DNA from: Candidatus Thorarchaeota archaeon
GTDB taxonomy: Archaea; Asgardarchaeota; Thorarchaeia; Thorarchaeales; Thorarchaeaceae
DNA: 64,000 nucleotides
Direction of reading: 5' to 3'
NCBI GenBank assembly: GCA_003345555.1
Contig: PRDJ01000039.1
Coordinates: forward strand, 13,530 to 77,529
This document shows, piece by piece, positions 27,302 through 39,705 of this stretch (the first letter of the stretch is position 1; each line of letters starts with the position of its first letter). A program made the translations under genes and the position numbers. The notes under the pieces were generated by a model. That model was not told the origin of the DNA. It saw only the letters and a program-made list of their open reading frames with translations, and did not search any database.

Positions 27302-29503
27302 GTGATTATGGCAAACAAGAACATAGTAGTATCGCTGTTTGTAGTGTTCTTGGTTGCTTCGTTTGCTGCCTTTGCACAGACAACACTCCCACAATCAAAC
27401 AATAACACTCAAACCATCGCTGAGCCAATTGGCTATCGTGCGCTTGCTGATTGGTCCGGATCAAGTGCTCTGATGCGGGAATACTTACTACCCGCAGGTA
27501 GTCCGGCCACCACCTACGTGCCATCAGCAGGTCCGAGCTATCCGACGGCCATAACGTACGATGCCAATGGTTTCATCTGGTTCACAGACATCTTCAACAA
27601 CAGGGTTTATCGTCTGACACCGGCGACAGCAATCAACCAAACGTCTACTACAGCTTTGAAGTGGCAACTGCCTCTCTTTTTGAACATGACACGCGGTCCT
27701 GCACACATCATCGTTGATGATGCTCATACCTCCGTGTGGTTCACCGACTACGTCAGCATGCAGATTAGCTGCCTCAATTGGACAACCAATCTGCTCAGGG
27801 ATTGGACTATCCCAAGGAACCTGAACATTCATCCATGGGATCTGCTTATGGACCCGGCAACCGGTCACATCTGGTTCACTGGGCTCAATTCATCTAGGTT
27901 CTGTGAGTTAATTCCACCCAATAATGCGCTAATCATCTACAACTTGATAGTCATGGGTGACACAGGCGGGCCACTACCTGTGAGTCTTGCCGAAATGAAG
28001 CCAAATGGGCCGAGATTCTACATGACGGACTTCCGTCTTGACTTTCTCTACAGGGTTCAGTTCATGAACCCTGGAGCAGGTGCCTCGGTCTTCCCACTCG
28101 TGCCTGGTGGCTCTAGCTTGGCGCTTGTCCTAGATAGCAAGCAAGACGTATGGGTTAGTCAACCTGCAAGTGACTTTGTGAATGAGCAGCTCACTGGCAG
28201 CAATTACAAGAAGACAGGAAGCATAACCTCAATGGGAACAACACTGGAGGATGACATGAATGTTGTTGCCCCCAACTCGGTAAATATCCCCATTCACATT
28301 ACTCCAGTAAGAGCCGCGGAATACACGACTCCCCCTCAGGTCATAGGTGATCCGTTGAACGTATGGAACGTTCCTTCCTCACCATCGGGGCCCTGGGGAA
28401 TTGACACCGATACCAACGATAGCGCATGGTACGCCGAATACACAGGGAATCAAATCGGAATGATAACTCCTTCGACCAACAAGACACTTGAGTTCATGGT
28501 TCCGACAACTAATTCCCACCCGCTCTACCTCACTGTGCCACGCTTCGGCATGCCACCCTATGCGACGCACGTATGGTTCACGGAGTTTACGGGCGGGAAG
28601 GTCGGTGAGCTTTTCACTGGCACCTTTGTGGACGTTCGGGCAGCACCATCCATTCCGCCACAGTATCCTCCTCCGAATCCTGGCTCCATTCGTTGGACTG
28701 CTGAGCCCGGAGCCGAGATATGGATTGACGCACCCAGCAACGGATTTAGCTCTGCACACCATGACATCCCTGAGAGAGGCGTTGTGAACCATCTGTACGC
28801 TCGTGTGGCGAACTTGGGCTTCTCTGCAGCCACCAACATCAATGTGAAGTTCTATTACCACAACATGTCCGTGGCGTTTGCGGAGTTCGTCCCATTGCCG
28901 CCATCTACGCCATCGGTTACTGTGTGGTTCCCGATAGGTAGTACGACGATAGCATCATTGGCACCCAGTCTCTCTACAGACGTGTATGTGGAGTGGACAA
29001 TCAACTCAACAGTGCCCGACCACTTCTGCATAGGCGTCCAAGTGTATACTTCAGGCGACATCAACCTGTATGACAACGTTGCCTATCGGAACTTCGAGAT
29101 ATTCAGCGTCCTTGCAGGTGTCCCCACTACACTCTACCTGCCAGTCTGGGCCACCAACTTCCTGAATGCGACTGGCACGCTGAGCGTGTCATTGTCCGGT
29201 GTTCCAGATGGCTGGACTGCAGTTGTCAAACCCAACGGCGTTTCTGTAGGACCGGGCAAGTCTACGCTACTGAACCTCACTATCCAAGTGCCTTCATCCG
29301 CAAAGGCTGGCATGCGTGCGGTGATAGAGGTCACGGGCATGATCGATGGAACCACGACTGGAATGCTCTGGGTTGAAGTCGATGTCGTTGCTCAGACCAC
29401 TACACAGACGCCGCCAATCAGTACGCTTGATGTGGGTTTCTTGGCAGGTGGATTCGTAGCGGGCGTTGTGTTGATGCTACTGATACGCAGACGCGGAAAG
29501 TAA
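27302..29503 (+). CDS. secreted cell-surface protein: signal peptide, Vgb/NHL-like beta-propeller repeats, Ig-like region, C-terminal TM anchor
   Basis: Signal-like N-terminus NIVVSLFVVFLVASFAAFAQ. At least six repeats of the (I/V)WFT(D/E)..N.(I/V) type: IWFTDIFNNRVYRL, VWFTDYVSMQISCL, IWFTGLNSSRFCEL, FYMTDFRLDFLYRV, AWYAEYTGNQIGMI, VWFTEFTGGKVGEL. Many N-x-S/T sequons. C-terminus VGFLAGGFVAGVVLMLLIRRRGK. Confidence 0.65.
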   Translation: MIMANKNIVVSLFVVFLVASFAAFAQTTLPQSNNNTQTIAEPIGYRALADWSGSSALMREYLLPAGSPATTYVPSAGPSYPTAITYDANGFIWFTDIFNNRVYRLTPATAINQTSTTALKWQLPLFLNMTRGPAHIIVDDAHTSVWFTDYVSMQISCLNWTTNLLRDWTIPRNLNIHPWDLLMDPATGHIWFTGLNSSRFCELIPPNNALIIYNLIVMGDTGGPLPVSLAEMKPNGPRFYMTDFRLDFLYRVQFMNPGAGASVFPLVPGGSSLALVLDSKQDVWVSQPASDFVNEQLTGSNYKKTGSITSMGTTLEDDMNVVAPNSVNIPIHITPVRAAEYTTPPQVIGDPLNVWNVPSSPSGPWGIDTDTNDSAWYAEYTGNQIGMITPSTNKTLEFMVPTTNSHPLYLTVPRFGMPPYATHVWFTEFTGGKVGELFTGTFVDVRAAPSIPPQYPPPNPGSIRWTAEPGAEIWIDAPSNGFSSAHHDIPERGVVNHLYARVANLGFSAATNINVKFYYHNMSVAFAEFVPLPPSTPSVTVWFPIGSTTIASLAPSLSTDVYVEWTINSTVPDHFCIGVQVYTSGDINLYDNVAYRNFEIFSVLAGVPTTLYLPVWATNFLNATGTLSVSLSGVPDGWTAVVKPNGVSVGPGKSTLLNLTIQVPSSAKAGMRAVIEVTGMIDGTTTGMLWVEVDVVAQTTTQTPPISTLDVGFLAGGFVAGVVLMLLIRRRGK

Positions 29504-29673
29504 CAACCTTTGGGTTAGGAATTGACGTTCCTGACCCCCTCTCTTTCTTTTCTAACTCCTTCACTAGCTAATACGGAGATAATGCCGGGATTGGTGTCCC
29601 GGTCTTGACACGCCTCGATTGGTCAGCAGAGAGTTACCGATGAGGCCTCTGCCTGATTCTATGACAAACCAGC

Positions 29674-29892
29674 CTAGGCGCCTGGGCGAGCAATCGAAAG
29701 GTAAAGTACATCCTCATACCCGAGAATGCCGTATCCGGACGGGTTCTCGAGCTTGACGTAGTCATCATAGACCTCGCTCACGCGCACGTTCGGTATCTTG
29801 GCTAGTGTATCTTTCTGCATATAACGCAGGTAAACGGTGAAGACCTGCCCGCTGCTCTTCATCTCCTCGAATATAATCCTCCAGTTCGGCAT
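29674..29892 (-). CDS. small hypothetical protein (72 aa), possibly a small beta-barrel (Sm-like?)
   Basis: MPNWRIIFEEMKSSGQVFTVYLRYMQKDTLAKIPNVRVSEVYDDYVKLENPSGYGILGYEDVLYLS; beta-rich pattern with a GxLxGYEDVLYL end faintly like an Sm2 motif. The ORF-track start at 29949 is probably an over-extension. Confidence 0.25.
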   Translation of the reverse strand: MPNWRIIFEEMKSSGQVFTVYLRYMQKDTLAKIPNVRVSEVYDDYVKLENPSGYGILGYEDVLYLSIARPGA

Positions 29893-30128
29893 TCTAGAAT
29901 CCTCTGAACAAAAACTGCGTAGATATGGGCATTTAATGCTTGCTCCCAAGATTGGCGCCGTATCTCTTTAATCAGCTAGGCCTTCTTGCAGGTCGCGACA
30001 CGGTCCAGATTAGCGTGAATCGATTTCCGCCTGACCTGAGTCACTGCAAACGATTCAACCAAAATACGTCTCAGGAACGAACAGTCGATAGCGTCATAAG
30101 GGCCCTAACCGTCCCTCAATGCTTGAGC

Positions 30129-31076
30129 ATGCTCTTCTCAGAGATAACCCCTGGCGTCCACTCCGTAAGAGGGAAGTTCGCTCCGGAATTTGGCTTCATC
30201 TCAAGCTACTTGGTCGTAGAAGGTGAGGAAGTTCTCGTTATTGATCCGGGTACTGTGGGGGACCCAGGGGAAGACATTCTGAAGGCAATCGACTCCCTTG
30301 GAATGAAACCAAAGCGCTGTGTTGTAGGCATCTTGTGCACTCACGGTCACCCTGATCACATTGGAGGTGTCTCTAGGCTGCGAAGAGCAACCGGCGCCCC
30401 GGTAATGATTCACAGCGGGGACAAGGAGCTTCTCGAGAGACCTGAGACGTTTCCTCGAGAACGGCTTAGATTGAATTTCGCGGGACGTCTTGCTATGAAG
30501 GTTGACCGAAGCCCTCTCCGGGTAAACTATGCCGGGCAGAAACCTGACCGTATTCTGAGCCAAGGCGATCAGATAGATGTGGGCGCGGTTTCTCTCAAGG
30601 TGATTCATACCGGGGGCCACTCAGCAGGGCACTGTATGTTCTTCGACCCCGACAGAAAGATACTCTTCTCGGGCGATGAGCTGAACAACTTCCCAAATGA
30701 GCCCCGGAGGTTCTATGTCGATCTCAGCGGCAGTCTCACAACCAAGCTCTCAGCGATTGAGCGTCTCTCTTCCATGGAGATTGACTATATACTTCCTAGC
30801 CACGACGTGCCTCATGTATTGGACGATGCCAAGCCCCAACTAGACGAGATCAGGGAAGGAGTTGTCCAGTTTCTCGACTTGCTTCTAGAACACTTGGGCT
30901 CTAGAGGTGAAGCCGACATAGAACAGCTCGCATTTGATTTGGCGCAAAGCAAGGCAGTGCCGATTCCCGAGGTACTGAATTCTCTTCTTCCAACGACAAT
31001 CCAAGTTGCACTAAGTGACCTGATGAGAGCTGGGCTGGTCAGGGTCAACGCAGACGGGGTATGGAGTCCAAGATAG
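30129..31076 (+). CDS. MBL-fold metallo-hydrolase with C-terminal winged-helix-like tail
   Basis: MLFSEITPGVHSV..SYLVVEGEEVLVIDPG then THGHPDHIGG (the HxHxDH motif) and later H and D ligands. The ORF-track start at 29940 overlaps the opposite-strand ORF and precedes the conserved N-terminus. Confidence 0.75.
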   Translation: MLFSEITPGVHSVRGKFAPEFGFISSYLVVEGEEVLVIDPGTVGDPGEDILKAIDSLGMKPKRCVVGILCTHGHPDHIGGVSRLRRATGAPVMIHSGDKELLERPETFPRERLRLNFAGRLAMKVDRSPLRVNYAGQKPDRILSQGDQIDVGAVSLKVIHTGGHSAGHCMFFDPDRKILFSGDELNNFPNEPRRFYVDLSGSLTTKLSAIERLSSMEIDYILPSHDVPHVLDDAKPQLDEIREGVVQFLDLLLEHLGSRGEADIEQLAFDLAQSKAVPIPEVLNSLLPTTIQVALSDLMRAGLVRVNADGVWSPR

Positions 31077-31218
31077 GGTCCGAGTGCCTTACAACCGAGC
31101 TATGTTCAAAAGAAACCTGCTTCTCTTCTGATTTGTTGTGATACTCGTCCAGCGGGTGCACACTAGGTCGCGCATCAGCTGTGTCCTTGGTGACTAGGTG
31201 AACACAGGAGGCTAAATC

Positions 31219-33816
31219 GTGAGTCGAACGGGGAAGCCAAAGGCTGTGAGTGGAAGTACTATCGAGGCTATTCGAATGGCGTCCGCATCGGTTCTGGGTT
31301 CCACGACCGGACATGGCTATCCAATCGGTGATGCGGTCGGTGTGGGCAGCATGATGGAGGCCAACTCTGAAGCTGTTGCAGGAAATGTGGCACCACTGAT
31401 TCTCTCGGTAAGCACACCTTTGAAGGCCTCTGAAGAGCTTGAACTTCTGTCTATGGAGTGGGACCTCGAAAGGACGCCGGGACCCGAGATACTGCCTGAA
31501 CAGCTCGTTGTTGCTGGGGGGTATGCCCGGGGTGTTAGTTCACATGTTTCCATGCTAACTTGGGAAAAGGGCATTGCGGATCCCTTCAATATCGAAGAAC
31601 GAGTCGAGCTAATCTCAAAGAAGCTTGCTGACCTAGAAGCGGCAACATCGGCAAGCGGGCTCGGGGTTGAAAACGAAGGTCTAGCCGTCCTCCGTAAGTT
31701 CTCGGGCAGATTGAATCGGACTCTGTTCCTGGATATGTTAGATCGTCAGTTTCAGGGGTCTTGGAGTACGCTCAGGATCAAGCCTGAGGATGTCGATGTA
31801 GAACTTGTGATTAGGCAGAGCTATCGGAAGGATTTCACGACTATGCCTCCCGGTGTGAACATCTCCGAACGCTCAAGTCCTGAATTCTTGCTTCCAGATG
31901 CTGATGATGCTGCGCTAACGGAGCACTTCAAACACCGAATCCTGAGCCCAAGCGCAGTAAGAGCGCTGTCCGTTCAAGTGCCCGAAATCGGAAGGGCGAT
32001 TCTCAAGGAAATGAACAGATATGCTTACAGCGGCGAGGAGGCTGATATAGCTCGAGCGCTTACGGCGGCGCTCGTCCGGTTCTTGGGCCGGACCGATATG
32101 CGATTTGCCGAACTGGACAGCATAGCGAAGGAAGCTGTCGATTTCACAAGCACTGCAAAGAACGCGATTAGGATCCTTGGAGATGCCGTAGAGCAGCATG
32201 TTTCCTCTGGTACGAGTCTTCGTCTAGCCGAGCACAAAGAGCGTCTTGATACTGCAGTTGAATCCTTAATCGTTAAGTTACCCAGCCCCACTCGCGATGT
32301 AGTGACTTGGTTCCTGCATGAAATGACCTCTGCCATGATGAAGTCTGCCGGAGGTGACCTGCCGGGTGAGGTCGAGTTCAAGGCTTGGCAACTCAAGAGC
32401 GCGACGGGATATTTCCTCACCTACGCTAGGAAAGTCAGCGACTACTTTGCTGAGCAGCTCTATCGTTTCCTCATCGTTTCATTCGCACGGGCAGGCATCA
32501 TGAATTCGCTTCACAGTCTTCATCAGGAAATGCTTGAGAAGGGTCTGAGCCCCACAGATCTGGTATTGTTTAATATGCTCTATGATGAGCTTCTGTCAAA
32601 GTTCAAGTCGGCTCTTGGCCGACGGGCGTGCGAAGGAACGACAGAGCGCAACCCAGGCCAGCTCATGGTAGCAATAGTCCAAGAAATCGTCGATGAATTC
32701 TCACGGGATAATCCGCGGAACATGGCTCAGTTTAGGAACATGGTTCAGGTCGCACGTTCCGAGATAGAGGCAAAACACAAGGTCGAGGAGCGAGATGGCG
32801 TACAGGGTCTCGACCGACTAGGAGAAGCACTGTTGGTCCGACTCTCTGACCTTGAGACTCTCGTCACACAAACGCTTCAGGATATTGCAGATACCCTTCT
32901 CAGCAAGAGATTCATCACTCAACTCGCAGATTTGACGACAACAGAGCAATCCAAATTGTCGGCCGAATTCATCAGACTAGTCGAGCTGCAGGAAGGTAAG
33001 TCGGCGCAATGGAAGAGCGAAGCAAGAAAGATAGTAAACGATGCTCTGCAAGGAGCCGCCATGGGAAAGGGCACAGCCCCGAGGTTGCTTACGCTAACAC
33101 AGAATCTACACGAGGCCATCCGTACCGGCCCTTCCACCGAGTCAGTCCTACAACGCGTGAAATCTGAAGCCGAGAGGCTCCAAGCAGAATACGAGCGCGA
33201 AGTCGAGGAGTGGGAGATAGCGTGTTCTCGGATAGAATCAGAGAACGTGCGTATTCGGGATGAGAATGAAACAAGAGAAGGTCTCCTGAAGCAGGCAAGC
33301 GCTGACTATGCTCGCGAGACGGCTCAATATGAGCAATTGAAACAGGCATATGACCCGTCTACCGTCCCAGGTTCTCCTCCTGAACCGCCTGAAACCCTCG
33401 AGCAGCGTGTTCTTAGAATCGAGCGGGCGCATCCCGTACAGATGCCCAAGTCGATGCCCACGAAACCAGAGGCGCCTGAAGAGCTTCTCGTTGCTGATGA
33501 GCTGCGCGATACGATTGCCGCCAACATCGAGACAGCAAGCAGAGACGAAAAATCATTACAGAGTATTCTCATAGATCGACTGAATTCCATGCGCGATCAA
33601 CCGGCGAACCAGATGGGGGATCAGGTCGTCAATATCGCTGACGGATTTCATGAGTACCTATTGGAGTCAACAATACGAAGCATCGGAAAGCTGCTGCCGC
33701 GTGCTTCACGGGTCTATCTTAAATCGCCTGAAGAACCCGACCTGATTTATCTCGTGAGCTACGAATACAAGAAGGACGAGATGATGGTTCAAATCGGCAG
33801 CAATTTCCTGAGGTGA
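31219..33816 (+). CDS. large hypothetical all-helical protein (865 aa), no recognisable domain
   Basis: GTG start 7 nt after an aggagg SD-like element. Long uninterrupted ORF with a helical/coiled-coil composition (EAERLQAEYEREVEEWE...); no P-loop, no TM. Four nt separate it from the next gene. Confidence 0.6.
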   Translation: MSRTGKPKAVSGSTIEAIRMASASVLGSTTGHGYPIGDAVGVGSMMEANSEAVAGNVAPLILSVSTPLKASEELELLSMEWDLERTPGPEILPEQLVVAGGYARGVSSHVSMLTWEKGIADPFNIEERVELISKKLADLEAATSASGLGVENEGLAVLRKFSGRLNRTLFLDMLDRQFQGSWSTLRIKPEDVDVELVIRQSYRKDFTTMPPGVNISERSSPEFLLPDADDAALTEHFKHRILSPSAVRALSVQVPEIGRAILKEMNRYAYSGEEADIARALTAALVRFLGRTDMRFAELDSIAKEAVDFTSTAKNAIRILGDAVEQHVSSGTSLRLAEHKERLDTAVESLIVKLPSPTRDVVTWFLHEMTSAMMKSAGGDLPGEVEFKAWQLKSATGYFLTYARKVSDYFAEQLYRFLIVSFARAGIMNSLHSLHQEMLEKGLSPTDLVLFNMLYDELLSKFKSALGRRACEGTTERNPGQLMVAIVQEIVDEFSRDNPRNMAQFRNMVQVARSEIEAKHKVEERDGVQGLDRLGEALLVRLSDLETLVTQTLQDIADTLLSKRFITQLADLTTTEQSKLSAEFIRLVELQEGKSAQWKSEARKIVNDALQGAAMGKGTAPRLLTLTQNLHEAIRTGPSTESVLQRVKSEAERLQAEYEREVEEWEIACSRIESENVRIRDENETREGLLKQASADYARETAQYEQLKQAYDPSTVPGSPPEPPETLEQRVLRIERAHPVQMPKSMPTKPEAPEELLVADELRDTIAANIETASRDEKSLQSILIDRLNSMRDQPANQMGDQVVNIADGFHEYLLESTIRSIGKLLPRASRVYLKSPEEPDLIYLVSYEYKKDEMMVQIGSNFLR

Positions 33817-33820
33817 TTCA

Positions 33821-36265
33821 ATGTCAAGCTCTTGGATACTCAGAACTCGTCAGATGAGTGAAGCTGGAAAGGAAATCCTTCTGAGAGAAGCGCTCGCTTC
33901 TCATATGAGGAACACACGCGATCGACAGTTTGTCGCAGAGCTCCTGAAACAGAGATTGCCTCTGGAAGACATTGTTTGCCTCTTTGCAGCTTATTACCTC
34001 ACGAGCTATCAAGACGTGAGGCTGAGGGGACATGAATCCTTTGAGAACGTTCCCGGCGAACAGAAGGATCGGGTAGCGGCTGAGTCGCGGAGACTTCTGG
34101 AACTGGAGATACGCGGGCTCTTGGGTAACAAACAGAAAGAAGAGATGGACGTTGCAAGACTCATCAGCGAATTCATAGTTGAATTCTGTGATGAAGTCGT
34201 GAGACCTGACTCGTCAAACCCTCAGGCAGGGATTGAAGTCACTAAGCTGCTGCAATCGTATGTCAAGAGAATTCCTAATGACTACTCGCCAAACCATCAT
34301 ATCGATTTCATCAATGGTGTTACAGGCTGGGGGTCTATATGGAGAGACGAGATCTATGAGAAGGCATCGGGGCTCAAAGAGTCATCCCTGACGCTCAGAG
34401 AGGAGCTGCTTAAGGAGCGTGAGCCGGAGATACCCGAAACAGCTGTTCTTCTTAGGTGCATTACACGTTTGCTGGGACATACTACGTACCTTCAGGGCCC
34501 GTTGAGCCCCGGTGATATCGATAATAGCAAGTGGGAGGAGATTGCCCGAGCAGTAACCCAGAATATCGCCAAGAGCGGACAGGGGCTGCAAGCGCTGAGG
34601 AAAGCCCATCAGATTCGTCTAGAAGCTCTTGATGCCATCGAGAGGGAATTTCAAACCCCGACTTCCCTTGAGGAATTCGAGAATCGAGTCGGCGATTTTC
34701 TGGCGAAGCGAATTGCCGAGGAGATTGCAGCTAATCCAAATGACGCGTACTTTCTCTTGGGGCACTTGCTTGGCCTCAACCCAAATGATGTCAAAGCGGC
34801 ACTCAGACCGAAAGGAATCGCCAGCCCAACTGACCTTGTGTCTGGGTTCGGCGCACTGACCGCGGGAGCACCTGAGGATGTTGGGCGCACCCCAGCGGAA
34901 AAGGGTGATTTGGAGGACATGGACCGCTCGCTGAAAACATTGGACAAGATCGAGCAGACCCTTGAGAAGTCTGTGAAGGGTATGCTTCGTTCCCGCGGTC
35001 TCAAGTCTTCCGAACTCGACAAGATATCCCTCCAACTTCTCACCAAAGAGCGAAGCAGCCTCATAGGAATCGAGATTGTTGTATTGGAACAGTTGAAGAA
35101 GATGGTACGTGTTCCTCCTCCGCAAGAGATTGCCCGATTAATCAAACTCCGCGAGGACGTACAGAAAGGTGCCCTGACTTCTTCGGGTGTCTCCTCAGGA
35201 CCACAAGTCAGCCGCCAGCTGAAGCAAGATGAGACAATCCGTTCTCTTAAGCTGGATATAGTCTGGCACCTGATGATAGGCCTGTTTACGAACCTGACTC
35301 GTGTAGTAGAAATGTACGTGCGTTCCAAGCAGGACATTCTTCGTATCAAAGCGCTTCTCAAAAGCATCTACGAGAAGACCGAGAGTGAATTGCAGGTCTA
35401 CCGAGAAGAGATACTTTTCGACTTTGCCATCGTACGAATCCAAGAGATCAAGTGTATTTGCCCTGAGTTGGACACCCTTTCCCTTTGGGCTTGGTTCCAT
35501 GCGCGGCTGTCAGGCGAGGACATGGATTCTGCTAAGTCTGAGTTCACTGGTTCGTCAAGTTCTGTGTTTGAGGGCGTGGTCAAAGCCCCTCTCAGAATAG
35601 CTGGTCTTGAATTTGATAACTACGCTATAGCTTTCGACGTGATGAACAGATTCCTAGTGAGGGAGAAAAGGGCAAAGCAGGCTAAGGAAGAGGTTGCGGT
35701 AGAGACGAAGCTTGAAGAACAGAAAATGATAGAAACCAAACGGAAGGAGCTCGACGTCCTCACATTTATCTATACTAAGGCTCACACCGTATTCAAGGCC
35801 ACGGGCAGGACCGGTCCCAAAGGCTTGGAATGGACATCAACTGATAGTTCCAAATGTGCGAATCTCCTGAGTCTGTACTTGAGAACCAATCGGGGCCGAG
35901 CCATATGCACGGCATGTGGGTCAATGGCTAAGGAGGGAACGTGTCCTAATCATGGTTCAGAGCTTGTAAATGCGAGTTCCGACTTGGACAACTTGGCGGT
36001 GTTCATAATGCAGGGAATCTCCGAAATCAAGACTGGCCTTATCGGGCCGTCTGCTGAATCCATGTCGTGGGAGAAAGCGAAGGCCGTCGTGCAGAAAGAA
36101 ACTAGCTTGCTCAAGCAGAAAGGCAAGCTTGACAAGAAGGCGAACTTGAAGCTTCTCTTGCCGGGTGAGATAGACTATGTGGTCGGCCCAGCAATGGCGG
36201 CCGTCGTGGCGCAGTACTTCAATGAGTCACTTCAGTATGCCGCTCGTCGGGCACGCTTGGCATGA
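33821..36265 (+). CDS. large hypothetical all-helical protein (814 aa) with one Cys2-Cys-His knuckle
   Basis: ATG preceded by gaggtga; coiled-coil stretches; CTACGSMAKEGTCPNHG near the C-terminus; no NTPase motif. Translationally coupled to the upstream 865-aa gene. Confidence 0.6.
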   Translation: MSSSWILRTRQMSEAGKEILLREALASHMRNTRDRQFVAELLKQRLPLEDIVCLFAAYYLTSYQDVRLRGHESFENVPGEQKDRVAAESRRLLELEIRGLLGNKQKEEMDVARLISEFIVEFCDEVVRPDSSNPQAGIEVTKLLQSYVKRIPNDYSPNHHIDFINGVTGWGSIWRDEIYEKASGLKESSLTLREELLKEREPEIPETAVLLRCITRLLGHTTYLQGPLSPGDIDNSKWEEIARAVTQNIAKSGQGLQALRKAHQIRLEALDAIEREFQTPTSLEEFENRVGDFLAKRIAEEIAANPNDAYFLLGHLLGLNPNDVKAALRPKGIASPTDLVSGFGALTAGAPEDVGRTPAEKGDLEDMDRSLKTLDKIEQTLEKSVKGMLRSRGLKSSELDKISLQLLTKERSSLIGIEIVVLEQLKKMVRVPPPQEIARLIKLREDVQKGALTSSGVSSGPQVSRQLKQDETIRSLKLDIVWHLMIGLFTNLTRVVEMYVRSKQDILRIKALLKSIYEKTESELQVYREEILFDFAIVRIQEIKCICPELDTLSLWAWFHARLSGEDMDSAKSEFTGSSSSVFEGVVKAPLRIAGLEFDNYAIAFDVMNRFLVREKRAKQAKEEVAVETKLEEQKMIETKRKELDVLTFIYTKAHTVFKATGRTGPKGLEWTSTDSSKCANLLSLYLRTNRGRAICTACGSMAKEGTCPNHGSELVNASSDLDNLAVFIMQGISEIKTGLIGPSAESMSWEKAKAVVQKETSLLKQKGKLDKKANLKLLLPGEIDYVVGPAMAAVVAQYFNESLQYAARRARLA

Positions 36266-36577
36266 GCCTTTGCGATCTCAATCAAGGAAAAAAACCACTC
36301 TTCCTCTCCGTCAGATGGTAACCTCTGTGCTATTTAATCACCTCAAATCCAGCGCAATCGCAGGACAGTCTCCGCCGTTCTGACCGACAGAAAACGTAGA
36401 ATATTGTCTGTCGGCAGATTGTGGGTGAATAGTTGAATTGATTCTCGGTGAATAACCGAAATGAACGTCGAGACAAGACCCGTTGTTCCACCGGACGGTC
36501 CTTGGGTCTTCTAAGGAGCACCAAGGTCAACCTCTGGAATCACATCATTGAGAGATTCGTGAATATTCAAAGCCCCT

Positions 36578-36624
36578 GGTGCCGGTACCGATTCTGGGAC
36601 CGGCACACCATCCTCTTTTTTCGT
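36578..36624 (+). terminator. strong hairpin (9-bp GC-rich stem) followed by a T6 tract, about 310 nt downstream of the 814-aa gene
   Basis: ggtgccggtaccgattctgggaccggcacc then atcctcttttttcg, read directly. Confidence 0.4.
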
Positions 36625-36816
36625 CTTCAAGTAACTCCGTTGGGCTGATTCATTCTACCAGTTCGCCGATTGTTGTCCTCCTTCCGCATTCTTCACGAAT
36701 CGCTGCTTTTGTTAGAAGAGGCGGTTGATCGGCCTATTCCCCTGATAGTCATAGAGCAACGTAACCTGAAACTTATATACGGCCTTAGGACCGGCTTGGC
36801 TGCTGAGTGAATTCAG

Positions 36817-38220
36817 ATGCCTAAGAAGTTCGTGCCAAGAGGGATAATGCCAGCCCTCATAACGCCATTCGCGAAAGATGGCGAGATAATCGAACAGAGC
36901 TTTCGCGAGATTATCGATTACACAATTAGCAAAGGAGCCGCCGGAGTCGTACCCGCTGGCACAACGGGCGAGTTCGTTTACATGAATATGGACGAGCGCA
37001 AGAAGCTTCTGAGTCTGACAACGGAATGCGTGAATGGTCGCGTTCCGATTATTGCAGGCACAGGTCAGAGCAGCACTGAAGCAGCTACTGAGCTGACGAA
37101 GTACGCGGCAGATATTGGATGCGATGCAGCTTTGATCGTTTCTCCCTTCTATTTGAAACCGACTGACAAGGGCTACTACGAGCACTATGCCACTATCGCA
37201 AGAAAGAGTGACCTGCCTGTCATAATGTATAATATTCCTCAGATGGGCGGTATGGGTGTCCTCCCTGTTAGCGTTGTGGAAGACCTAGCCGAACTGGACA
37301 ATATCGTAGGCATCAAGGACAGCAGTGGTAACATAACCTACATGCTGGAACTACTGCAGAAGCTAAAAGGCCGCATTTCTGTGATAAATGGCAATGACGA
37401 GATCTTCTTCTCTGCAGTGACTGCGGGTGTGAACGCCGCAATCATGGCCTCAGCGAACTTGATGCCTCATCTTTGGAATGATCTTTTGAAGAAAGTCCGC
37501 AAAGGTGACATTGATGGAGCCCTCAAGCTTCAGCTCTCGATGCAGACTCTGACTCGAATTGTGACAAGGTATGGAGGTGCTCCGCCAGTCAGGGCAGCAC
37601 TGAAGATGATGGGAATCGATTCGGGTAAAGCACGAATGCCACTTAACACAGGTGGGACGTTGACTCCCGAACTTAAGGAGGAAATAAGAGTCGAGCTGGA
37701 GAAGCTAGGGCTGATTGGGGGTTCAAAGCATGTTGGTCCAGCGAAAGAAGTCGACATTAATGGTGTCCTACTAGAGGCCGGATTGAGTGCCGAACAGCAA
37801 CAAGCCCTCAAGGTCGGACGCGGATCGAGTCAAGCTTGTACCGCCAGCGTCGTTTGTGGATCCAAGACCGGTCCCCTGGGATCAGCGTTTGTCCGATTGC
37901 TGACGACTCCGCGAATTGGACGCGAGGCACTATCAGTGATTCTTGAACCGAACTTGGCTGTCAGACCTTCCAGCCTAATGTTGCCGGGCAGAAAGATCAG
38001 CTCAATGCGTCAGGCGTCAGTGTTCTACGGTCCAGTGCAGTCCGGCGCTGCTAGAGCTGTTGCAGGTCACCTAGCTGCTGGCAAGATATCTCCTGACGCG
38101 GTTCAAAACAATGTCATGGTGATGGTGATCGATGTGGACTTGGATACAGTCGACAGAAGAGCAGTCACTGCCGCTACGGAGGTAGCGGTTTCCGCGGCTC
38201 TCAGTCAGATTTGGAGGTGA
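36817..38220 (+). CDS. DapA/DHDPS-like class I aldolase fused to a C-terminal Fae-like domain (paralog 1)
   Basis: N-terminal 295 aa: GIMPALITPF...GTTGEF..., the Schiff-base aldolase (DHDPS/NAL family) pattern. C-terminal ~170 aa aligns with formaldehyde-activating enzyme (LMLPGRKISSMRQASVFYGPVQSGAARAVAGHLAAGKISPD.. versus Fae [41 protein letters not shown]). Confidence 0.7.
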   Translation: MPKKFVPRGIMPALITPFAKDGEIIEQSFREIIDYTISKGAAGVVPAGTTGEFVYMNMDERKKLLSLTTECVNGRVPIIAGTGQSSTEAATELTKYAADIGCDAALIVSPFYLKPTDKGYYEHYATIARKSDLPVIMYNIPQMGGMGVLPVSVVEDLAELDNIVGIKDSSGNITYMLELLQKLKGRISVINGNDEIFFSAVTAGVNAAIMASANLMPHLWNDLLKKVRKGDIDGALKLQLSMQTLTRIVTRYGGAPPVRAALKMMGIDSGKARMPLNTGGTLTPELKEEIRVELEKLGLIGGSKHVGPAKEVDINGVLLEAGLSAEQQQALKVGRGSSQACTASVVCGSKTGPLGSAFVRLLTTPRIGREALSVILEPNLAVRPSSLMLPGRKISSMRQASVFYGPVQSGAARAVAGHLAAGKISPDAVQNNVMVMVIDVDLDTVDRRAVTAATEVAVSAALSQIWR

Positions 38221-38256: not shown

Positions 38257-39705
38257 GTGTACGCCGGACTAGTCACACCGTTTGGTGAGAACGGCGTCAA
38301 TGAGGCACAATACCGCAATCTGATTGAGCATGTTATCAAGGCAGGGGCAAACGGCATTGTTCCCTGCGCATCACTCGGCGAATTCACAAGTATGTCATTT
38401 GAGGAGAAAGCTGAAGCTATTCGAGTCGCATGCGACGCTGCGAAGGGACGGGTGCCGGTGCTTGCGGGTGCATGCGCGGCTTACACTGCCGACGTCGTCA
38501 AGCTGTATCTAAAGGCTGCCGAGTACGGAGCTTCGGGGGCGTTGGTAGTCTCTCCGTATTTCATGAAGCCTTCCACAAAGGAAATCTATGAACACTATGA
38601 GAAGGTTGCGAACTCAGCTGGTCTCCCAGTATTCCTGTATAATTGTCCACAGTTCACTGGCGTGAACCTCGACTGGTGGCTGATCGAAGGTCTGCGCGAG
38701 ATCAAGGGCATTATTGGGCTCAGCGATGCGAGCGGCAACTTGGTCAATGTCTCGCAGATACTCGCTCGTCGGCCAGAGGACTTTCAAGTTGTTGTTGGCC
38801 ATGATGAAGTCGTTCTGCCGAGTATGGCAGCAGGCTGCGATGGAGCTATCCTAGCAACTGCAAATATCTTCCCCGACAGATATGTAAGAATGGCGATTGC
38901 TCTAAGTCAAGGCGATCTCAAAGAGGCTAGACTCATTCAGCGTAGCGTTCAGAGAACCGCGAGAATCGTTGTCAACAAGGGCGGTCCTCTCGCTGTCAAG
39001 GCGGCCCTGAATATGATGGGCATCCCCGTCGGTTCTGCTCGAATGCCTCTCCTACAGGGCGATGTTCTGGGCTATGATGACTTAGATGAACTCAGGACAC
39101 AGCTGGAAGACCTCCAGCTGATGCCTAGAGGGTCAGTCACCTACAGGGCGCATGGTCGATCCGTTGTTACGGATGCATATCCGAAGGCTGTGGGAATGAG
39201 CAAGGACATCATCGATGACCTCACCCTCCTTCATGGAGAAGCTTTGTGTGGGGAGGGATTGGAAGTTGCTCATGTCGATCTGGTTGTGGGACTCAAGGAT
39301 GGGCCTATGCAGGCTGCCTTGACCAACGCAGGTATCAAGACCGATGGCTTCCATATGTCCAACATCATCAAGGACCTTCGACCTACGACCGTATTTGCGC
39401 CCACGGTGACAATCACCGACGAACATCACAGCAGGCTCGTGTTCGAGTTCGCTCAGAAGGCCGTTGCTGACGCTGTGACAAGGACAATCACAGACCGGAT
39501 GATTCCCGAGGAGCTTGTGCCAGACCTAGTGATTGCTGTGAAAGTGTTCGTCCATCCCAATGCCAACAACCCAAGACGGGTACACATGAACAATTTCCGA
39601 GCCACGAGGTTTGCGATAAGGCGAGCTCTGGAAGGTCGACAATCTGTAGAGGAGGTAGTTGCCCGAAAGGACTCAGCTCGTCATCCATATGGCTACAATC
39701 CATGA
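38257..39705 (+). CDS. DapA/DHDPS-like class I aldolase fused to a C-terminal Fae-like domain (paralog 2)
   Basis: GTG start. DapA-like N-half (LVTPF..., GEF). The C-terminal domain carries the Fae signature HGEALCGEGLEVAHVDLVVGLKDGP (Fae: [24 protein letters not shown]) and a KDSARHPYG end (Fae: KSATHPF). Confidence 0.75.
   Translation: MYAGLVTPFGENGVNEAQYRNLIEHVIKAGANGIVPCASLGEFTSMSFEEKAEAIRVACDAAKGRVPVLAGACAAYTADVVKLYLKAAEYGASGALVVSPYFMKPSTKEIYEHYEKVANSAGLPVFLYNCPQFTGVNLDWWLIEGLREIKGIIGLSDASGNLVNVSQILARRPEDFQVVVGHDEVVLPSMAAGCDGAILATANIFPDRYVRMAIALSQGDLKEARLIQRSVQRTARIVVNKGGPLAVKAALNMMGIPVGSARMPLLQGDVLGYDDLDELRTQLEDLQLMPRGSVTYRAHGRSVVTDAYPKAVGMSKDIIDDLTLLHGEALCGEGLEVAHVDLVVGLKDGPMQAALTNAGIKTDGFHMSNIIKDLRPTTVFAPTVTITDEHHSRLVFEFAQKAVADAVTRTITDRMIPEELVPDLVIAVKVFVHPNANNPRRVHMNNFRATRFAIRRALEGRQSVEEVVARKDSARHPYGYNP

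Follow-up and report, generated by a model that had tools for sequence, protein, structure and literature searches.

In a 64,000-nt stretch of contig PRDJ01000039.1 from a Candidatus Thorarchaeota archaeon (the window, to which all coordinates refer unless another locus is named), two adjacent large genes, here called A and B, define two uncharacterised Asgard-restricted protein families, to which neither the known families nor the solved structures offer a detectable relative. A first-pass annotation of the bare sequence had placed three co-oriented open reading frames (ORFs) at 30129-31076, 31219-33816 and 33821-36265, and all three are found there in the ORF list and its translations; these genes and the features described within them are on the plus strand. 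The first (30129..31076) encodes a metallo-beta-lactamase (MBL)-fold metallo-hydrolase of 315 amino acids. Gene A (31219..33816) starts with GTG and encodes a protein of 865 amino acids, 96 kDa and isoelectric point (pI) 5.2, and gene B (33821..36265) encodes a helical protein of 814 amino acids, 91 kDa and pI 6.9; both are predicted to be soluble. The 4-nt gap between A and B and the Shine-Dalgarno-like elements of the two large ORFs, to which the annotation had drawn attention, can be read directly from the sequence. The element of A is AGGAGG at 31206..31211, 7 nt before the GTG, while that of B is GAGGTGA at 33810..33816, which consists of the last codons of A (..CTG AGG) together with its TGA stop and lies 4 nt ahead of the ATG of B. 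One database entry starts A at an internal ATG (846 amino acids). However, the residues STxEAIR, encoded ahead of the first ATG of A, are conserved in the homologs from Thorarchaeia, Jordarchaeia and Freyarchaeota, and the GTG at 31219 is therefore the better start.

Full-length homologs number 99 for A (35-59% identity) and 157 for B (46-77% identity), almost all of them labelled Thorarchaeota; with at least about 100 each, both ORFs lie far beyond what chance would produce. When single genomes representing each GTDB species were scanned with the profile of B, 75 loci emerged, all from Thorarchaeota-type metagenome-assembled genomes, and each of the roughly 75 species loci recovered holds one copy of A-B in the same neighbourhood. 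As seen by tblastn with the window proteins, the gene order in Thorarchaeia is nearly invariant: AFOR, then MBL, A, B, in most loci an opposite-strand cutA, and two DHDPS-Fae fusion genes. In every one of the 69 Thorarchaeial loci with a complete A-B junction, the start of B lies between -1 and +6 nt from the stop of A and GAGGTGA is kept. The spacing is 3-4 nt in Jordarchaeia, Freyarchaeota and Lokiarchaeum ossiferum, and 14 nt in Promethearchaeum syntrophicum MK-D1. The two genes are evidently translationally coupled, with GAGGTGA as the predicted coupling element, and from this invariant coupling it is reasonable to infer that A and B would form a heterodimer.

The pair is not confined to Thorarchaeia. 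An exhaustive hidden Markov model (HMM) search, which covered A only, was run with its profile against 1.84 billion representative proteins at E-values up to 0.001; it returned 45 relatives, every named one of which is from an Asgard archaeon, so that relatives of A are evidently not detectable outside this group at the depth of that search. The distant full-length relatives come from Freyarchaeota, Jordarchaeia, Helarchaeota, L. ossiferum and Lokiarchaeota, and a partial one from Hermodarchaeota. In Jordarchaeia, Freyarchaeota, L. ossiferum (NEF87_002840 and the next gene downstream) and P. syntrophicum MK-D1 (DSAG12_00801/00802), A is followed after 3-14 nt by a gene for a domainless protein of about 790-815 amino acids. 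These downstream proteins are orthologs of B: hhalign against the B profile gave a probability of 99.4% for the Lokiarchaeial and 100% for the Jordarchaeial protein, and hmmsearch gave E-values of 9e-122 (Freyarchaeota), 4e-90 (Jordarchaeia) and about 1e-47 (Lokiarchaeia). Moreover, a profile built from the non-Thorarchaeial B proteins recovers further Lokiarchaeial ones. The first-pass annotation had allowed that the pair might turn out to be syntenic in no other genome; in fact the two genes stand together in about 70 species of Thorarchaeia and in three or more further classes of Asgard archaea. Its conservation in at least four Asgard classes is evidently vertical, as judged from these comparisons of sequence and gene order.

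The hydrolase gene upstream had been counted as part of the same system. Its assignment to the MBL fold stands, since it matches PF00753 with an E-value of 1e-32 (114 bits against a cutoff of 22.7) and carries the metal-binding motif HxHxDH as THGHPDH, which together place it in the metallo-beta-lactamase superfamily. It also matches the ODP family of Pfam (2.7e-13) and reaches the cutoff of no specific NCBIfam subfamily. The ORF list extends it 63 codons upstream to a TTG at 29940 (29940-30128). Because its homologs have 315-322 amino acids, the ATG at 30129 is favoured as the start, and the extension is probably not translated. Its inclusion in the system does not hold beyond Thorarchaeia. 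Between this gene and A lie 142 nt that include a T-rich tract. The gene precedes A in nearly all loci of Thorarchaeia, but in one of them (L004) four genes intervene, and no MBL gene stands beside the pair in the loci of Lokiarchaeia, Jordarchaeia or Freyarchaeota. The neighbours there are wholly different (an MFS transporter gene upstream in Lokiarchaeia, an opposite-strand radical-SAM gene in Jordarchaeia, small ORFs in Freyarchaeota). It follows from these different neighbours, and from the splitting of MBL from A in one Thorarchaeial genome, that the conserved unit is A-B. The hydrolase was therefore rejected as a third subunit; it is a Thorarchaeial neighbour of the pair.

MK-D1 transcribes A and B to a similar extent: RNA sequencing gave 163 reads per kilobase per million mapped reads (RPKM) for DSAG12_00801 (A) and 200 for DSAG12_00802 (B), similar to the 212 of the transporter gene upstream (Imachi et al. 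2020, PMC7015854, Suppl. Table 3). The same table lists both as hypothetical, with no COG, arCOG or KEGG/KO assignment and no flag as eukaryotic signature proteins.

The AlphaFold2 model of A, made from a 40-sequence alignment, has a predicted local distance difference test score (pLDDT) of 87 and a predicted TM-score (pTM) of 0.79; that of B, from 42 sequences, has a pLDDT of 84 and a pTM of 0.67. The two proteins had been described as all-helical, which holds for B apart from a small ribbon but not for A, in whose model there are beta-containing modules at both ends and a hairpin. According to DSSP on the model, the N-terminal alpha/beta module of A (residues ~20-174, 31276..31740) has the order b-b-a-b-b-b-a-a. 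It contains a Gly-rich loop and the motif WEKGxxDPF, is the part of A best conserved between classes, and is the only part to which the distant relatives P0252 and P0253 align. The beta-hairpin, also assigned by DSSP, follows at residues ~193-218 (31795..31872), and then comes a helical body of about 15 helices (residues ~230-639, 31906..33135), as seen in the model and the cross-class alignment. This body has a conserved H..SSG loop, in which S330 and G331 are invariant in all classes. Next in the model is a coiled-coil arm (residues ~640-793, 33136..33597) in which a helix of 71 residues leads through a Pro-rich loop into a return helix. In the cross-class alignment the loop and return helix (~721-803) are missing from Lokiarchaeia and Helarchaeota, which retain both end modules, and the arm is accordingly regarded as accessory. 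The C-terminal alpha-beta-beta-beta module (residues ~803-865, 33625..33813) is conserved in all classes and forms the second HMM match region in the homologs from Helarchaeota and Lokiarchaeia. An internal duplication of the end modules was considered and rejected, since hhalign found no similarity between the N- and C-terminal ones; likewise, A and B were rejected as paralogs of each other (hhalign probability 0.2%).

The model of B is helical throughout except for the small ribbon at ~694-718, which holds C696, C699, C708 and H711. The annotation had seen here a single Cys2-Cys-His knuckle, and these four residues are indeed invariant in 42 Thorarchaeial homologs and in all classes examined. 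They would form a CxxC...CxxH zinc ribbon (residues ~690-720, 35888..35980) with short strands in the model. Two Pfam families recur below threshold over this ribbon, Zn_ribbon_Nudix (PF14803) in 16 of 42 members and the TFIIB-type Zn_Ribbon_TF (PF08271) in 13 of 42, with best E-values of 0.00094-0.011 that lie under the gathering score. The most conserved helices, in the alignments of all classes, are at residues ~479-612 (35255..35656), where R494, E497, Y499, D505, E529, E530, R539, E542, A561, R562, L591, Y601, A604 and R610 are invariant in all classes. Over Thorarchaeia, Freyarchaeota, Jordarchaeia and Lokiarchaeia a total of 28 residues of B are invariant, including the four putative zinc ligands. 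In addition, net positive charge is clustered at residues ~650-700 and 750-800.

Much of the first-pass description survives the searches for known families. No domain is recognisable in A or B among the families of Pfam, NCBIfam or PADLOC, and a Pfam scan of every member of the A family gave coiled-coil noise only. Neither protein has a P-loop (no Walker A) or a transmembrane segment, the maximal 19-residue Kyte-Doolittle hydropathy being 1.18 for A and 1.46 for B. Remote-homology methods, which might have assigned the two proteins after all, did not do so: none of the sequence-profile and Foldseek searches run puts either of them in a known family. Against 350,542 PDB chains, Foldseek gave for A a best E-value of 0.2, TM-scores of about 0.1 and no longin or roadblock structure in the top 50, and for B a best E-value of 0.14, probabilities of at most 0.09 among the top 50 and TM-scores of about 0.1; against viral structures the best E-value for A was 0.1. 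Searches of the PDB sequences with single sequences and with profiles gave nothing meaningful for either protein. No relationship to SMC/Rad50-like ATPases was found, there being no Walker A, no SMC match in Pfam or NCBIfam, and a Foldseek probability of 0.01 for B with MukBEF. CATCHR or alpha-solenoid membership of B was likewise not found by Foldseek against the PDB (probability 0.05 for Munc13 and 0.02 for Exo70), and neither profile nor fold places A among the Roadblock/LC7/MglB or longin proteins. A homology of the N-terminus of A to roadblock proteins was rejected, since hhalign with an Asgard Robl_LC7 protein was not significant (probability 0.4%, E 0.15). The possibility of A being a PPR protein was also rejected: a phmmer E-value of 9e-17 against designer PPR proteins was lost with the family profile, and no PPR match was found in Pfam. 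All of these matches come from one 45-residue stretch (residues 415-463, 32461-32607) aligned with many identical repeats. This stretch is a single helix-turn-helix similar to one PPR motif, and the matches reflect E-value inflation by repetitive targets rather than homology. No match to pore-forming toxins (XaxA/YaxA, ClyA) reached significance, the XaxA model NF033928 of NCBIfam giving an E-value of 0.014 and 14.7 bits against a cutoff of 125, and the best matches in PADLOC-DB 2.0, Csm2 (E 0.009) and LmuA (E 0.053), are not significant either. No eukaryotic homolog was found in the exhaustive sequence search for A or among the PDB structures for A and B, so on these searches they do not qualify as eukaryotic signature proteins. 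The text of the literature searched does not mention NEF87_002840/41 or DSAG12_00801-03, and the available part of a structural survey of Asgard proteomes (Nat Microbiol 2026) does not discuss the A/B family.

Several observations concern the surroundings of the pair. In Helarchaeota, three A-like genes for proteins of 765-775 amino acids (locus L084, 7001-9298; L085, 7001-9319; L086, 7001-9328) stand without a neighbouring B. The genes beside them show no relationship to B, and the idea that they encode hidden B homologs was rejected (hmmsearch E > 0.2). Each of the three A-like genes is divergent to one for a conserved domainless protein of 404-412 amino acids and is itself followed by one for a small, highly acidic protein of 116-148 amino acids, and these may be an alternative partner set of A. 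A histone-fold (CBFD_NFYB_HMF) gene lies 1-6 kb from A(-B) in all five Lokiarchaeial and Helarchaeota loci (L081, 15070-15336; L087, 12006-12254; L084, 4329-4547; L085, 10240-10455; L086, 838-1053), and not in the loci of Thorarchaeia, Jordarchaeia or Freyarchaeota. In the Freyarchaeota locus, the gene for a small GTPase of the Arf/Ras family (L083, 13278-13988) follows B at a distance of 1.1 kb. In the Jordarchaeial locus, the gene for a 398-amino-acid HEAT/adaptin-like repeat protein (L082, 13037-14233) begins about 20 nt past B, and a Robl_LC7 gene (L082, 1050-1385) is found 7 kb upstream.

Downstream of B in the window is a spacer of 551 nt (36266..36816, no strand assigned), which is the site of the minus-strand cutA gene in most relatives. 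The gene for CutA1 (about 105 amino acids) separates B from the DHDPS-Fae genes in the majority of Thorarchaeial loci but is missing here and in about 10 others; there is no cutA anywhere in the window, and a cutA pseudogene in the spacer was rejected because tblastn found no remnant. In the closest relative, whose B is 76% identical, the same place is taken by a similar spacer of 534 nt (L088, 3783-4316), and the blocks GATTCTCGGTGAATAA and TCTAAgGAGCACCAaGGTC, the hairpin with its T-run and a TATA-like CTTATATA ahead of the next gene are conserved between the two spacers. This hairpin is the one that had been annotated about 310 nt downstream of the pair as a strong terminator with a T6 run. 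It is present at ~36577-36609, with T6 at 36616-36621, about 312 nt past the stop of B, but its folding is just slightly more stable than that of shuffled sequences (z = -1.6). The 3' region appears to be a lineage-specific spacer at the position of the relatives' cutA, and is regarded as context for the pair. The tandem genes that follow (36817-38220 and 38257-39705) each encode an aldolase domain of the DHDPS/DapA family with a formaldehyde-activating-enzyme (Fae) domain fused to it, and this tandem arrangement is kept, at 60-74% identity, in essentially every Thorarchaeial locus examined. On the other side, past the AFOR gene and ahead of MBL, a gene at 27302-29503 encodes a beta-propeller protein of 733 amino acids with Vgb-lyase-like repeats and NEW3/CARDB-like domains. 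In none of 80 related loci did tblastn find a counterpart, and this gene looks like a lineage-specific insertion in an otherwise fixed neighbourhood. Scans for bacterial-type promoters and terminators gave matches at chance level only, no Rfam match was found in 29500-37000 at E-values up to 1, and the base composition is uniform over the whole window.

Considering these results, we lean, with rather less than even confidence, towards A-B being a soluble heterodimeric, non-catalytic housekeeping scaffold or adaptor of about 188 kDa. A and B would assemble 1:1 in the cytoplasm into a complex that would be a vertically inherited housekeeping component in the Loki-Thor-Hermod-Jord/Frey part of the Asgard tree. 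A would contribute two conserved beta-containing end modules bracketing its long helical body and, in Thorarchaeia, Jordarchaeia and Freyarchaeota, an extra dispensable coiled-coil arm of about 150 residues with a proline-rich tip, which might serve as a lineage-specific reach or spacer element. B would contribute a helical body with the strictly conserved Arg/Glu/Tyr/Asp patch on helices 479-612 and the CxxC...CxxH zinc ribbon, and this ribbon together with the N-terminal alpha/beta module of A could be the surfaces that bind partners, whether protein or nucleic acid. Enzymatic action, ATP-driven motor activity, pore formation and defence would not be among the roles of such a complex. The scaffold is favoured because both proteins combine large size and a helical build with a lack of motifs, because what is conserved is the putative zinc ribbon, the end modules and a charged helical patch of the kind usual at interfaces, because the whole coiled-coil arm can vanish without loss of the family, and because the locus behaves as a core gene and not as an island. 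Two points weigh against it. The Helarchaeota A-like genes without an adjacent B suggest that A may act alone or with another partner. Furthermore, the term 'non-catalytic' is argued from absence, and the invariant R/E/Y/D cluster of B might be a novel kind of active site. A bolder proposal is that A-B is an Asgard-specific two-subunit machine of about 190 kDa with new folds, ancestral to at least the Loki-Thor-Hermod-Jord/Frey lineages and having a dedicated role in cell biology, for example in the cytoskeleton, membrane protrusions, chromatin or a small-GTPase platform; this is possible, though we regard it as doubtful. The results speak neither for nor against the tethering or cytoskeletal role that the first-pass annotation had suggested.

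Alternatively, the pair might be a nucleic-acid or chromatin complex, with the zinc ribbon and the conserved charged helices of B binding DNA or RNA in chromosome organisation, transcription or RNA processing. The invariance of the ribbon, its recurrent weak matches to TFIIB-type and Nudix N-terminal ribbons in Pfam, and the positive charge focused at ~650-700 and 750-800 of B are consistent with this, as are the histone-fold genes within 1-6 kb in the five Lokiarchaeial and Helarchaeota loci and the position of the Jordarchaeial locus beside informational genes (for tRNA synthetases, the RNA polymerase subunit RPAB4 and ribosomal proteins). However, every Pfam match of the ribbon is below threshold, and zinc ribbons also serve protein-protein contacts. 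Foldseek against the PDB shows no known nucleic-acid-binding fold for A or B, whose overall pI values (5.2 and 6.9) are acidic to neutral; the histone neighbour, absent in Thorarchaeia, Jordarchaeia and Freyarchaeota, may reflect just the synteny of Lokiarchaeia and Helarchaeota; and NEF87_002840 and NEF87_002841 are absent from two supplementary files of a preprint on the chromatin of L. ossiferum. We therefore consider a nucleic-acid or chromatin complex unlikely.

Asgard archaea are rich in small GTPases and roadblock proteins, and the beta modules of A could be of the roadblock or longin kind, the heterodimer then being a regulatory platform in the manner of Mon1-Ccz1, FLCN-FNIP or Ragulator that acts on Asgard Ras/Arf/Rag-like GTPases. 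The order b-b-a-b-b-b-a-a is that of the secondary structure of the longin domain, and the N-terminal module in the model agrees with it. The hairpin and the C-terminal a-b-b-b of A could make up a second such module, and the sole alignment with a roadblock protein covers the topologically equivalent beta2-alpha2 stretch of A. The GTPase gene past B in Freyarchaeota and the Robl_LC7 gene upstream in Jordarchaeia also fit, but GTPase genes are not conserved neighbours in Thorarchaeia or Lokiarchaeia. The hhalign comparison with the roadblock protein given above was not significant, so that the resemblance of A to longin and roadblock domains consists in the order of secondary structure alone. 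No Foldseek match of A in the PDB has an E-value below 0.2, none of the top 50 is a longin or roadblock structure, the weak matches are of the PAS/GAF type, and the two end modules have no detectable similarity to each other. This makes a GTPase platform quite improbable.

We give as little credence to an enzyme of new fold, in which the B cluster R494/E497/Y499/D505/E529/E530/R539/E542/R562 would be the active site and A a regulatory or substrate-presenting subunit, perhaps joined by MBL in a three-gene metabolic module in Thorarchaeia. These charged and aromatic residues of B are invariant over classes that share only about 20% identity, and MBL, A and B are adjacent in nearly all Thorarchaeial species amid metabolic genes (AFOR, DHDPS-Fae). 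But the conserved residues sit on long helices, as interface residues typically do, and no cofactor or nucleotide motif was found in A or B; moreover, MBL is unlinked in Lokiarchaeia, Jordarchaeia and Freyarchaeota, is four genes away in one Thorarchaeial genome, and is separated from A by the spacer with its T-rich tract.

Finally, the first-pass annotation had also entertained an unrecognised defence system. A two-gene cassette of large unknown proteins and the sub-threshold XaxA and Csm2 matches might point to a defence, toxin or mobile-element system, be it a binary pore former of the alpha-helical type or an anti-virus pair not described before, but this is very improbable indeed, because the pair is single-copy, is present in every species locus recovered within a stable housekeeping neighbourhood and has no significant PADLOC match, and because the divergence looks vertical at a fixed chromosomal position in all of the roughly 75 Thorarchaeota-type loci, no integrase or transposase gene is a neighbour in Thorarchaeia, Lokiarchaeia or Jordarchaeia (an IS605 OrfB gene lies about 6 kb off in Freyarchaeota), neither protein has a hydrophobic hairpin, A has no viral structural match and the base composition does not vary.

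It is known that about half of every Asgard genome is annotated as 'hypothetical', and the usual route into it is to seek eukaryote-like proteins. An unknown pair is thus no surprise in itself, as Asgard genomes are full of unknowns, but this one is unusually well defined and is the opposite case to those commonly pursued: large, confidently folded, transcribed in culture, coupled over several classes, and unmatched in any library queried. The A-B pair is a real, still unexplained piece of Asgard core cell biology. Among the archaea nearest to eukaryotes, it is also a tractable candidate for cell biology peculiar to the lineage. Since both of the cultured species checked, L. ossiferum and P. 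syntrophicum, carry the pair, pull-downs, localisation by cryo-electron tomography and structure determination by cryo-electron microscopy are feasible now. Should it prove to be a GTPase platform or an organiser of the cytoskeleton or chromatin, it would bear on the organisation of cellular complexity ahead of eukaryogenesis; even a plain scaffold in some ordinary process would add two new protein families.

Comparison with known systems shows partial likenesses in each case. The stalk of streptococcal antigen I/II gave the only profile match in the PDB with an E-value below 0.01 (E 0.0031), on the long helix and the Pro-rich segment of A. However, this match is compositional (Ala/Glu-rich heptads, then a Pro-rich stretch), A has no adhesin domain or secretion signal, and the stretch that is matched, which Lokiarchaeia and Helarchaeota lack, shows the lowest conservation within A. 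GAF/PAS-type sandwiches (bacteriophytochrome PAS-GAF and the autoinducer-binding domain of TraR/YenR) are the sole recurring non-helical weak Foldseek matches of A, over about 150-240 columns. The part aligned is taken to be the N-terminal region, the only one with comparable beta structure, but with E-values of 0.4-1.3, probabilities of at most 0.3 and TM-scores of at most 0.34 these matches are no evidence of homology, and A has no known motif for binding a ligand. B is similar to CATCHR proteins (Exo70/Munc13) and alpha-solenoids in its size, its helical rod or solenoid character and its predicted soluble cytoplasmic nature, although its Foldseek probability with CATCHR is at most 0.05, the TM-score is about 0.1 and there is no sequence similarity. 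In addition, to our knowledge a zinc ribbon is not associated with CATCHR or solenoid families. Mon1-Ccz1, FLCN-FNIP, Ragulator/LAMTOR and the prokaryotic MglB share with A-B the two-subunit character, and the order of elements in a longin domain matches that of the N-terminal module of A. The subunits of A-B, however, are 3-8 times larger and mostly helical, with no significant profile or fold similarity to longin/roadblock regulators and no conserved GTPase gene nearby. As for the zinc ribbons of TFIIB and of the Nudix N-terminus, the fourth ligand in B is His, its ribbon lies between helices near the C-terminus, and B has no transcription-factor or Nudix domain; but like them, B presents four putative ligands, the invariant CxxC...CxxH, in what the model predicts to be a short beta-ribbon.

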